Shown: positions 7,474 to 59,747, counted from the first letter of the stretch. The stretch is DNA of 64,000 bases from Escherichia coli (GCF_001677475.2 NZ_CP015229.1), one strand, 5' to 3'. Program-made: numbers and translations. The notes: a model not told the origin generated them from the sequence alone.

Positions 7474-7516
7474 AAAGCAACCTCAATAAGAAAAACTGCC
7501 GCGAAGGATAGCAGGA

Positions 7517-7551
7517 ATAAAAAAAGGGAGCACTGTATTCACAGTGCTCCC
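7517..7551 (-). terminator. Rho-independent terminator of csrB
   Basis: Minus-strand hairpin GGGAGCACUGU..ACAGUGCUCCC followed by UUUUUUUAUU. Confidence 0.85.
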
Positions 7552-7884
7552 GGTTCGTTTCGCAGCATTCCAGCTACTTTTGTTGCTCCCTGCTCATCCT
7601 TGACAACTTTTCCTCTGGCCTTGCGGCCAATCGTTCGTCCTGAACTATTGCTTCCTGCTCACACCACCCCGATGTGATACTTCATCCTGAAGTGTCCCTG
7701 GCCTTCCTGACCCACCGAATCATCCTGACCGGTTCTCATTCTCCATCCTGGAGGTGTCCTTTAACGCGTCCTGCGTCATCCTCTTCGCTTCGTCCAGAAG
7801 CCTTTCCCTGAAACACCATCCTGGTGTGTCCTTCAGAAGTGTCATCATCCTGATGTTCACTTCGTTGTCTGACTCCCTGTCGAC
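7517..7884 (-). ncRNA. csrB: CsrB small RNA (CsrA-sequestering), about 368 nt
   Basis: Minus strand begins GTCGACAGGGAGTCAGACAACGAAG and carries about 20 repeated CAGGA(U/A)G / AGGA motifs (seen as catcctg/tcctg on plus strand); ends with hairpin gggagcactgt-gaat-acagtgctccc plus U7. Confidence 0.9.
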
Positions 7885-25007: not shown

Positions 25008-25925
25008 TTATTGTTCATAACGAAAGCGGAATTTTTCTTGTTCAGCAGCGGCTTTCGCCAGGATCCATTGACGAAAGGCGGCTATTTTACCCAGTTCTGC
25101 CTGGCTGTCATGACAAACCAGATAAAAAGCGTTTTTACTGACCAGAACATCATTAAACGGGCAAACAAGACGTCCGGCCTCGATTTCAGATTGCGCCATC
25201 ACGTTATTTGCCAGCGCCACTCCCTGCCCGTGGATAGCCGCTTGCAGCACCATGGCGCTATGGCTAAAAATTGGCCCTTGCTGAACGTTGATATGATTTA
25301 ACCCCAATTGGCGAGTATATGTCTGCCAGTCACGGCGTGACGCATCATGTAATAACGTATGTTTAGCCAGATCTTCCGGGGTCTTCAAGGGTTTTTCGCC
25401 AGTCAGCAGTAGCGGCGAACACACCGGCAATAAATATTCGGCGTACAGTTTTTCCACCCGTAGCCCCGGCCAGTTGCCCCGACCATAAAATATCGCCACA
25501 TCAACATCATCCGCCAGCTTATCTTCCTGACGATCAACCGCCTGGATTCGAACGTCAATTCCCGGATAAGCTGAATTAAAGCTGGAAAGTCGCGGAACCA
25601 ACCAATGAATGGCGAAACTGGGGAGTAAACTGACCGTCAACGCCCCCTTGGCGCTACGGGCCTGGAGTTTACGCGTCGCTTCGGTTAATTGCGAAAATAT
25701 CTCTTTGATATCGAGGAAATAGCTTTGACCTTCCTCGGTCAGCAGGAGTGAACGATTACGGCGGCGGAACAGTTTTAGCCCCAGAAAATCCTCAAGAGAC
25801 TTGATTTGATGACTTACTGCGGCCTGGGTCACAAAAAGCTCTTCTGCTGCGCGAGTGAAACTTAAATGGCGTGCTGCGGCATCAAAAACTCGTAAGGCAT
25901 TTAGCGGTGGTAATCGTTTAGACAT
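25008..25925 (-). CDS. gcvA: LysR-family glycine-cleavage transcriptional regulator, 305 aa
   Basis: ORF 25008..25925; LysR HTH (LSFTRAAEELFVTQAAVSHQI); divergent from gcvB. Confidence 0.93.
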   Translation of the reverse strand: MSKRLPPLNALRVFDAAARHLSFTRAAEELFVTQAAVSHQIKSLEDFLGLKLFRRRNRSLLLTEEGQSYFLDIKEIFSQLTEATRKLQARSAKGALTVSLLPSFAIHWLVPRLSSFNSAYPGIDVRIQAVDRQEDKLADDVDVAIFYGRGNWPGLRVEKLYAEYLLPVCSPLLLTGEKPLKTPEDLAKHTLLHDASRRDWQTYTRQLGLNHINVQQGPIFSHSAMVLQAAIHGQGVALANNVMAQSEIEAGRLVCPFNDVLVSKNAFYLVCHDSQAELGKIAAFRQWILAKAAAEQEKFRFRYEQ

Positions 25926-26053
25926 GGCTTTTAAACTTTGATGTTAAATGAATTTAACAATTAGATCACACTGTGTAACCTATTAGTTTTTTTAATCTGA
26001 GCCATTATAAATTGTCCGTTGAGCTTCTACCAGCAAATACCTATAGTGGCGGC

Positions 26054-26259
26054 ACTTCCTGAGCCGGAACGAAAAGTTTTATCGGAATGCGTGTTCTGGT
26101 GAACTTTTGGCTTACGGTTGTGATGTTGTGTTGTTGTGTTTGCAATTGGTCTGCGATTCAGACCATGGTAGCAAAGCTACCTTTTTTCACTTCCTGTACA
26201 TTTACCCTGTCTGTCCATAGTGATTAATGTAGCACCGCCTAATTGCGGTGCTTTTTTTT
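26054..26259 (+). ncRNA. gcvB: GcvB small RNA, about 206 nt
   Basis: ACTTCCTGAGCCGGAACGAAAAGTTTTATCGG 5' end, G/U-rich tgttgtgttgttgtgtttg region, terminal hairpin gcaccgcc-taatt-gcggtgc plus T8. Confidence 0.9.
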
Positions 26260-26275
26260 ACCTTGCGATCGCGAA

Positions 26276-26503
26276 TTACTGATCCAGTTCGACCATCTCT
26301 TTCACGTCGGTACGGTTGATCTGCTGTTTGTTGCCATTAGCGTCTTTATACGAAATCATACCGGTATCGTTATCAGTCTGTGGTTTGCCGTCAGAGACGA
26401 TGGTACGTCCGTCATTGGTGTGCATCACATAGTTCGAACCGGAACAGGCGCTCAGGGCAAAAGTCAGCATACAGGCAGAAATAATTGCGGCAGTCTTTTT
26501 CAT
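26276..26503 (-). CDS. ygdI: Small lipoprotein (DUF903), 75 aa
   Basis: ORF 26276..26506; lipobox LSAC; paralog of YgdR in this window. Confidence 0.88.
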
Positions 26504-26694
26504 CATCTTCTCCTTAAAGCGATTAATAAATCTTAATAGTATTGATTAACAGGCTAAAATTAACGCCTAACACTATTCAGCATATGTTACTGACGCGGCT
26601 TCGCCAGGATATCCAGATAATTCTGATGGTTAGCACCCTCCTTGTATCAAAGTGAATTTTGCGTCACGATCGGTGCATCAAGCCGAGGAGTACC

Positions 26695-29253: not shown

Positions 29254-29360
29254 GCCTGATGCGCTACGCTTATCAGGCCTACATAACTCCTGCAATATTT
29301 TGGATTTGCATGAGTTGTAGGCCGGATAAGGCGTTCACGCCGCATCCGGCATGAACCACG
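29254..29360. repeat. BIME: two REP units in opposite orientation
   Basis: gcctgatgcgctacgcttatcaggcctac (29254..29282) and gtaggccggataaggcgttcacgccgcatccggca (29326..29360). Confidence 0.8.
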
Positions 29361-30744: not shown

Positions 30745-30821
<77 letters not shown>

Positions 30822-30854
30822 ATTAAAATTTGATGAAGTAAAGCAGTACGGTGA

Positions 30855-30931
<77 letters not shown>

Positions 30932-30965
30932 ATCAAAATTTGATGAAGTAAAAGCAGTACGGTGA

Positions 30966-31042
<77 letters not shown>

Positions 31043-53780: not shown

Positions 53781-54494
53781 ATGTTATTTGCATGGATAAC
53801 CGATCCTAACGCCTGGCTTGCGCTCGGTACGCTGACGCTGCTGGAGATCGTTCTTGGGATCGACAATATTATTTTCCTTTCTCTGGTGGTGGCAAAGCTC
53901 CCCACAGCACAACGTGCTCATGCGCGCCGTCTGGGGTTGGCGGGAGCCATGGTTATGCGTCTGGCGCTGCTGGCATCAATCGCCTGGGTTACGCGCCTGA
54001 CGAATCCGCTTTTTACAATATTCAGTCAGGAAATTTCCGCCCGTGATTTGATTCTGCTTCTGGGGGGCTTGTTCCTTATCTGGAAAGCCAGCAAGGAAAT
54101 CCACGAATCCATTGAAGGTGAAGAAGAAGGGCTGAAAACACGCGTTTCATCATTCCTCGGCGCTATCGTGCAGATTATGCTGCTGGATATTATCTTCAGC
54201 CTCGACTCGGTGATTACCGCTGTGGGTCTGTCAGATCACCTGTTTATTATGATGGCCGCCGTGGTGATTGCCGTAGGCGTGATGATGTTCGCCGCGCGCT
54301 CGATTGGTGATTTTGTCGAGCGCCATCCTTCGGTAAAAATGCTGGCGCTCTCTTTCCTGATTCTGGTCGGCTTTACCCTGATTCTGGAAAGTTTCGACAT
54401 CCACGTACCGAAAGGTTACATCTACTTCGCGATGTTCTTCTCTATTGCGGTTGAAAGCCTCAACCTGATTCGCAACAAAAAGAATCCGCTCTGA
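53781..54494 (+). CDS. ygdQ: TerC-family inner-membrane protein, 237 aa
   Basis: ORF 53781..54494; multi-TM, TerC-like. Confidence 0.88.
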
Positions 54495-54631
54495 TACTCC
54501 GTACGCTCTCCTGCGGGAGGGCGTACTCACTCCTGTTACCCTCACAGTTTAAGATTTTCCTGCTTTCAAGATATATAACGTCGGTTTATAAACAGACTAT
54601 TATCATAGGTGGGCCAAATGAGGATAACCGG

Positions 54632-54850
54632 ATGAAAAAATGGGCAGTAATAATTTCTGCAGTCGGACTGGCGTTTGCTGTTTCCGGGTGTTCCAGTGAT
54701 TACGTCATGGCGACCAAAGATGGCCGTATGATTTTGACCGATGGAAAACCTGAAATTGATGATGATACCGGGCTGGTGAGTTATCACGATCAGCAAGGTA
54801 ACGCGATGCAAATTAACCGTGATGATGTTTCGCAAATTATTGAACGTTAA
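54632..54850 (+). CDS. ygdR: Small lipoprotein (DUF903), 72 aa
   Basis: ORF 54632..54850; lipobox VSGC; clear paralog of YgdI (shared SDYVM..DGR..DGKP..DDTG..Q.NRDDV pattern). Confidence 0.88.
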
Positions 54851-54957
54851 CAAATAAGGTCAGCATCCGGCTGGCCTTAAGATTTTTCTCTTTCCCTTTT
54901 CCCTTCCCTCTGCCATTTTTATATTCCTTATGTTGTGATTATAAAAAGGAAACGGCT

Positions 54958-59461: not shown

Positions 59462-59550
59462 AAAAAAAAACCTGCGCATCCGCGCAGGTTGGTGCAAGAG
59501 ACAGGGTACGAAGAGCGTACCGAATAATCTCACCAATCAATACCTCTGGG
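59462..59550 (-). ncRNA. omrA: OmrA (RygA) small RNA
   Basis: Minus strand reads CCCAGAGGTATTGATTGGTGAGATTATTCGGTACGCTCTTCGTACCCTGTCTCTTGCACCAACCTGCGCGGATGCGCAGGTTTTTTTTT, including terminator hairpin. Confidence 0.9.
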
Positions 59551-59664: not shown

Positions 59665-59747
59665 AAAAAAAAACCTGCGCATCTGCGCAGGCTGGTGTAA
59701 TTCATGTGCTCAACCCGAAGTTGACTTCACCTATCAATACCTCTGGG
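59665..59747 (-). ncRNA. omrB: OmrB (RygB) small RNA
   Basis: Minus strand reads CCCAGAGGTATTGATAGGTGAAGTCAACTTCGGGTTGAGCACATGAATTACACCAGCCTGCGCAGATGCGCAGGTTTTTTTTT; shares 5' and 3' ends with omrA. Confidence 0.9.

Follow-up and report, generated by a model that had tools for sequence, protein, structure and literature searches.

[quoted passage not shown] We examined both in a window of 64 kb (64,000 nucleotides; all positions are those of this whole stretch) from E. coli NZ_CP015229.1. The original prediction for this DNA held that ygdI and ygdR are paralogous DUF903 lipoprotein genes in opposite orientation, that the ygdI stop codon is only 17 bp from the end of the gcvB terminator, and that convergent transcription could therefore couple the small RNA and the lipoprotein gene. 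Every feature it named was found, none displaced by more than 3 nt. The elements on which the argument draws are the following.

25008..25925, minus strand: gcvA, a LysR-type regulator (305-aa ORF, RefSeq annotation).
26019..26047, plus strand: sigma-70-like promoter of gcvB (pattern scan).
26054..26259, plus strand: gcvB, an Hfq-dependent small RNA of 206 nt (Rfam RF00022).
26167..26187, plus strand: terminator-like hairpin followed by T6 inside gcvB (pattern scan; paired in the Rfam consensus structure).
26231..26252, both strands: common terminator hairpin with 8 pairs (6 G-C) and a 6-nt loop (scan, fold and Term-seq).
26228..26275, minus strand: ygdI 3' UTR, 48 nt (Term-seq primary 3' end).
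26276..26503, minus strand: ygdI coding sequence, a 75-aa prolipoprotein (the RefSeq start is the second ATG).
26331..26359, plus strand: antisense promoter-like site in ygdI, TTGCCA-17 nt-AATCAT (pattern scan).
54632..54850, plus strand: ygdR coding sequence, a 72-aa prolipoprotein and paralog of ygdI (ORF, BLASTP, Pfam and NCBIfam).
54855..54889, plus strand: intrinsic terminator of ygdR, a 10-pair hairpin (54855..54879) followed by a T-run (pattern scan).

The locus is part of the well-annotated E. coli core genome. An 801-bp query spanning it matched 5425 of 5426 complete E. coli genomes (5384 with at least 99% identity), RefSeq names gcvA, ygdI and csdA there, and every element is already annotated or contained in published datasets. 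The gcvB sequence matched the whole of Rfam RF00022, positions 1-204 of 204, with 199 bits against a gathering score of 42 (E=5e-48). It resembles GcvB RNA in its full length, in its divergence from gcvA (128 bp from the gcvB 5' end), in its GU-rich R1 region and in a Rho-independent terminator with U8; we found no differences. GcvB was enriched 33.5-fold in a Salmonella Hfq co-immunoprecipitation described in the literature. Further known RNA genes of the window are CsrB (7516..7875, minus strand), the OmrA/OmrB pair (59463..59550 and 59666..59747, minus strand) and three identical tandem tRNA genes (30745..31039, plus strand); the Rfam small RNA family ES036 (CssrF) was matched at 29275..29317 on the minus strand (46.6 bits; gathering score 37.6).

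For ygdI, the predicted gene, strand and length of 75 aa agreed with the annotation, but the predicted end at 26506 did not: it belongs to the upstream one (26504..26506, minus strand) of two consecutive in-frame ATG codons, whereas the RefSeq start is at 26503. Reading from the first ATG gives an ORF of 76 aa (26276..26506, minus strand). The spacing from the Shine-Dalgarno motif AAGGAG, as read in the sequence, is 3 nt for the first ATG but 6 nt for the second, which favours the second (26503) as the start of ygdI. Between the last U of gcvB at 26259 and the ygdI stop codon (26276..26278) there are 16 bases; the predicted 17 bp is the difference between the two coordinates. The ygdR gene was located on the opposite strand, 28.1 kb from ygdI, with the predicted position and length.

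A pairwise alignment, which had been suggested as a check of the paralogy, bore it out. YgdI and YgdR shared 43 of 72 residues in BLASTP (60%; E=1e-31), and the mature domains, with signal peptides removed, aligned with a score of 168 against 24.4±4.9 in 2000 shuffles (z=29). Both proteins exceeded the cut-offs of Pfam PF06004 (DUF903; 83.9 bits for YgdI and 85.9 bits for YgdR; cut-off 27) and of NCBIfam NF033216, lipo_YgdI_YgdR (113.2 and 105.9 bits; cut-off 42). The relationship is already known, as it is built into the NCBIfam name "YgdI/YgdR family lipoprotein". The two proteins are the namesakes of this family and share its size, lipobox and Sm-like beta-barrel, without any difference except the start-codon discrepancy (76 versus 75 aa). 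The family comprises 283 clusters at 50% identity among 1.84 billion representatives, mostly of about 70-80 aa, the rest being shorter fragments or, in a few cases, gene calls of greater length. At the DNA level the similarity of ygdI and ygdR is almost erased (merely 69% identity over 59 nt), which indicates that the duplication is old. A tblastn search of the 64-kb window yielded no third DUF903 copy.

We then turned to the question of what ends the ygdI transcript. A pattern scan of the gcvB-ygdI junction detected no terminator-like site on the minus strand. Minus-strand RNA folds into the hairpin of the gcvB terminator (26231..26252); on the plus strand this hairpin is followed by U8 of gcvB, and on the minus strand it is preceded by A8 and followed by UACAUUAAUC. 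The minus-strand tail, UACAUUAA, holds 3 U in its first 8 nt, too few for a canonical intrinsic terminator. As the scan gave no minus-strand terminator pattern and the same hairpin is folded, we conclude that ygdI is without a terminator of its own.

The Term-seq data of Adams et al. 2021 (eLife, Supplementary file 1) class the ygdI 3' end as "primary, antisense to gcvB". In the gcvB region, window positions equal MG1655 positions minus 2916642, an offset fixed by the printed flanking sequences, which match the window. In LB at OD 0.4, the ygdI 3' end was at 2942870 (minus strand; score 36.6k) and that of gcvB at 2942894 (plus strand, window 26252; 134.8k). In LB at OD 2.0, ygdI ended at 2942869 (minus strand; 1.16M) and gcvB was represented only by an internal end at 2942768 (132k); the corresponding positions in M63 were 2942870 (minus strand; 442k) and 2942763, again the internal end only (1.7k). 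The ygdI 3' end was thus at window position 26228/26227, 4-5 nt beyond the hairpin, in three growth conditions. The convergent 3' ends map to opposite sides of a single stem-loop, the arrangement of a bidirectional terminator. We conclude that one hairpin is common to both RNAs and that the two overlap by 32 nt, the last 32 nt of the ygdI 3' UTR (26259..26228) being antisense to the GcvB 3' end. As an example of a convergent mRNA whose 3' end is made by the terminator of a small RNA, the locus is clean and well documented. The ygdR primary 3' end in Term-seq was at the start of the T-run of that gene's terminator. The internal GcvB ends (2942768 and 2942763) correspond to window 26121..26126 in the GU-rich R1 region; they were listed where the full-length end was not, which suggests that about 70 nt at the GcvB 5' end persist as a stable fragment.

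We propose that the ygdI transcript, 16 bases past its stop codon, would run into the gcvB terminator in reverse complement, as A8, hairpin and U-poor tail, and end 4-5 nt past the hairpin, a single hairpin thereby shaping the 3' ends of both RNAs. The end at 26228 would accordingly arise by termination. With 3 U in 8 nt of tail, the mapped end could also be a processing product: polymerase would continue into gcvB and past it, and the RNA would then be shortened to the stable hairpin by 3'-to-5' exonucleases. Such trimming fits the tail UACAUUAA, which does not make a canonical minus-strand terminator, the distance of merely 4-5 nt between the end and the stem, and the double-stranded RNA at gcvB nucleotides 1-163 (see below), which implies minus-strand RNA well past the hairpin. 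It fits less well with an ygdI end that is identical and sharp in three conditions and has very high scores, and with the Term-seq lists, which contain no second, downstream minus-strand 3' end between gcvB and rlmM. Moreover, hairpins with imperfect U-tracts and bidirectional terminators of convergent genes are common in E. coli. We consider trimming possible but clearly the less probable origin of this end.

A bidirectional-terminator model for convergent E. coli genes was reportedly put forward by Ju et al. in 2019. In E. coli, convergent polymerases have been proposed to terminate by colliding at hairpins (Wang et al. 2022 preprint), and the ygdI 3' end might likewise result from head-on collision with polymerases transcribing gcvB. 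With the bidirectional terminators of these two accounts, whose model covers hundreds of convergent pairs in E. coli, the pair shares the stem-loop between convergent units, the flanking 3' ends and the overlap, and its ygdI (minus-strand) side likewise lacks the features of an intrinsic terminator. The gcvB (plus-strand) side, in contrast, is a textbook intrinsic terminator. More importantly, the same ygdI end persisted while gcvB was barely expressed, with scores 12- to 30-fold higher in LB at OD 2.0 and in M63. The full-length GcvB end was not listed in these two conditions, so that convergent gcvB polymerases should be rare there, which argues that collision is not needed; we regard it as an unlikely cause of the ygdI end. 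Termination at the shared hairpin remains our preferred explanation, although it would be incomplete, as the double-stranded RNA over gcvB nucleotides 1-163 indicates that some ygdI transcripts pass the hairpin.

Strand-specific RNA sequencing had been suggested as a check for read-through antisense to ygdI, and published strand-specific datasets already report antisense and double-stranded RNA at gcvB-ygdI. Huang et al. 2020 (mBio, Table S1e) captured with p19, from stationary-phase cells, an RNase III double-stranded RNA cluster, number 231, "gcvB ygdI", at U00096.2 2940762-2941125 (window 26098..26461). Sense and antisense reads of this cluster were roughly equal in two repeats (817/1101 RPM and 1206/1238 RPM), in a method by which 87% of E. 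coli genes yield some captured double-stranded RNA. Table S3 of the same study contains a perfect 21-nt duplex at window 26443..26463, and the match of its sequence to the window fixed the U00096.2 offset. Cluster 231 overlaps MS-301, a double-stranded-RNA-immunoprecipitation locus of Lybecker et al. (2940717-2940880, window 26053..26216, gcvB nucleotides 1-163). On the plus strand, Adams et al. 2021 (Supplementary file 2) placed a region of Rho termination antisense to ygdI at 2943134 (window 26492), with a score of 10.25 (p=2e-71); as the score is computed from 800-nt windows, its position is coarse, and the downstream window takes in the start of csdA.

An antisense transcription start site of Thomason et al., as reproduced in Table S1e of Huang et al. 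("2941030 +", U00096.2), falls at window position 26366. This is 7 nt past the -10 hexamer of the promoter-like site in ygdI (26331..26359), which our scan had returned before we saw the published site. We considered whether this promoter is conserved and rejected the idea: among 81 orthologues TTGCCA occurred in 15, and the -10 hexamer was AATCAT in 58 and GATCAT in 20, with drift at synonymous sites and no constraint beyond coding. Judged by its sequence, the antisense promoter looks fortuitous.

Since gcvA and ygdI are on the same strand, read-through from ygdI would run antisense over gcvB towards gcvA. The start of gcvA presumably lies outside gcvB, and the simplest explanation for the double-stranded RNA over gcvB nucleotides 1-163 is that some ygdI transcripts extend beyond the hairpin. 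We propose that polymerases would leak through the hairpin in both directions and that the weak promoter in ygdI may fire antisense; the resulting low-level antisense RNA would form duplexes cut by RNase III, and the plus-strand RNA would be terminated by Rho. Such antisense RNA would be the usual by-product of compact convergent genes rather than a regulatory circuit, and it probably has no function.

We next considered how far the layout is conserved. A profile of YgdI/YgdR was used to scan one genome per species in 100,044 species and yielded 539 relatives. Each of the best 80 of these 539 was an orthologue of ygdI, with 80-100% identity, and nearly every one came from Enterobacteriaceae; in 80 of 80 a gcvB gene (89-100% identical) lay convergent and directly downstream of ygdI, with a spacer of 8-66 nt (modes 13 and 16). 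Two loci from a more distant lineage had a gcvB that was 78% identical, a 9-nt spacer and the gene order csdA-ygdI-gcvB-gcvA-ygdD-rlmM. The tail-to-tail arrangement was therefore present in 82 of 82 ygdI-orthologue loci examined. The sequence of the spacer itself was unconserved; the block of A8, hairpin and TACATTAATCAC was nearly invariant but is part of gcvB. In Entomohabitans teleogrylli (locus L061, 3225..3295), the 66-nt spacer contains an additional GC-rich hairpin of 10 bp, with UUGCGUUUUGC after it, which separates the ygdI stop codon from the gcvB terminator. This was the only one of the 80 species with a separate hairpin on the ygdI side, and it indicates that sharing of the hairpin is not obligatory.

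Linkage to gcvB across the whole DUF903 family was also considered and rejected, as members 47-51% identical to YgdI were found in unrelated contexts, and none of the more distant DUF903 genes examined had a GcvB match nearby. The linkage is a property of the ygdI orthologue group. The distant genes, such as those at loci L086 (3001..3234) and L084 (3001..3237), were in other conserved contexts, either next to genes for YfaZ and BOF or with an MFS transporter gene on one side and kefF-kefC-folA on the other. Their varied contexts indicate that the family has spread to new places in enterobacterial genomes on several occasions.

Taken together, the presented results are best accounted for by separately regulated tail-to-tail genes that share a hairpin, with antisense RNA as a by-product and ygdR as an old paralog; we put the probability of this explanation as a whole at about 0.8. 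Its main competitor on the regulatory side is the coupling proposed by the original prediction, of which the physical part stood, that is, the 32-nt overlap and the antisense and double-stranded RNA are real, but the functional part was not supported, and disruptions of ygdI do not phenocopy loss of gcvB. There is no sign so far that the overlap regulates either gene.

In a cis-antisense scheme, RpoS-driven transcription of ygdI would help to shut GcvB off in stationary phase and minimal medium: polymerases would collide, transcription of gcvB would suffer interference, or RNase III would cut the duplex between the ygdI 3' UTR and GcvB; in reverse, read-through from gcvB would damp ygdI in rich medium. 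The 3'-end overlap of the two RNAs, the double-stranded RNA and RNase III products across both genes, and the polymerase collisions proposed for such hairpins in E. coli would all supply the means. Selection for coupling would likewise produce a layout kept in 82 of 82 loci, and the reciprocal Term-seq scores across conditions are compatible with interference. However, gcvB is controlled by GcvA with glycine and rich medium, and the reciprocal scores are explained by separate regulators, RpoS for ygdI and GcvA/glycine for gcvB, which already account for the expression patterns. Genetic findings from the literature give indirect hints against coupling: a ygdI deletion was wild-type in acid resistance whereas a gcvB deletion was not, and Salmonella ygdI::cat, inserted 71 bp downstream of gcvB, behaved as a neutral linked marker that left GcvB repression of yifK intact. 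Against coupling are also the variation of the spacer in sequence and length, with one species having an extra hairpin between the genes, and the location of the overlap within stable hairpins of both RNAs, which disfavours pairing. Nor is the double-stranded RNA signal special, given that 87% of E. coli genes produce some in the p19 capture. We consider coupling in either direction quite improbable. If it were real, a sigma-S input would be added to the amino-acid regulon of GcvB. More specifically, the abutment might have been kept since sigma-S-driven transcription of ygdI, running into the hairpin and past it, helps to switch GcvB off in stationary phase and poor media through collision and RNase III cleavage; we give this very little credence, but if true, ygdI would be a lipoprotein gene and a cis-acting anti-GcvB element at once.

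The shared hairpin has a practical consequence: cassettes in ygdI, or deletions that remove the hairpin, alter both transcripts, which is relevant to the engineering of either gene. We also rejected regulation of ygdI or ygdR by GcvB in trans. RNAduplex pairing of GcvB R1, R2 or the full-length RNA with the translation-initiation regions (-50..+30) of ygdI and ygdR was no better than that of dinucleotide shuffles (z from -0.45 to +1.6).

The residue after the lipid-carrying cysteine directs the sorting of lipoproteins (the +2 rule). Both proteins have a signal peptide that ends in the lipobox pattern [LVI][ASTVI][GAS]C. In the translations, the lipobox of YgdI is L-S-A-C20 (Cys20 codon 26444..26446) and that of YgdR is V-S-G-C20 (Cys20 codon 54689..54691), each with Ser at +2. 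As this residue is Ser and not Asp, Lol-dependent export to the outer membrane is predicted for both. The YgdI signal peptide would be cut before Cys20 and this residue lipidated, Ser at +2 would lead to sorting by Lol to the outer membrane, and the mature protein, a 56-aa Sm-like beta-barrel, would be tethered in the periplasm. In the literature YgdI has been used and detected as an outer-membrane lipoprotein and as vesicle cargo.

Mature YgdI consists of a single DUF903 Sm-like beta-barrel of 56 aa (AlphaFold2 model, pLDDT 86), SCOP assigns YgdR to the Sm-like superfamily, and the solved structures of close homologues are small Sm-like beta-barrels. Seven sequences of the family are represented in the PDB (2ra2, 5cai, 3bdu, 2jn0/3fif, 2rd1, 2rb6 and 2k57), among them 2ra2, which is the orthologue of YgdI in Salmonella, and 2jn0/3fif, entered under the name YgdR. 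Crystal entries differ in their number of copies (2, 3, 6, 6 and 7), and the two that have the YgdR sequence contain 9 chains in total. Given that Hfq and LSm proteins share this fold, we considered it as a hint of RNA binding and rejected it: identity to YgdI is 6-12%, YgdI carries a lipoprotein signal peptide and is periplasmic, and a small beta-barrel is a generic fold. The likeness is one of fold alone and is not evidence for RNA binding. In an alignment of 45 family members, Cys20, Gly32, Pro41 and Gly57 were nearly invariant; these are structural or lipidation residues, with no catalytic-looking set among them.

The literature describes ygdI as RpoS-dependent and ygdR as induced by Rcs. 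Expression of ygdI was lower in a cpxRA mutant of Citrobacter rodentium, and inhibition of LolCDE raised both genes, ygdI 25- to 53-fold and ygdR 8- to 12-fold. The original prediction called the function of DUF903 unknown, and this is still true, although structures, outer-membrane location and induction by RpoS or Rcs have been described. As abundant, stress-induced envelope lipoproteins with solved structures, the two proteins pose a question of function that has long been recognised and to which the window adds nothing new. We tentatively suggest that they may be small, non-enzymatic binding or adaptor modules, induced by envelope stress, at the inner face of the outer membrane.

In sum, ygdR is an ancient duplicate of ygdI that has a promoter region and a canonical terminator to itself and is regulated by Rcs rather than RpoS. 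The window is not identical to MG1655: the offset between the two shifts by 3 nt between the gcvB and ygdR regions (interval 26.3k-54.8k), and a T/G difference from the sequence in the Term-seq table was seen downstream of ygdQ, in its terminator region at about 54480..54545.
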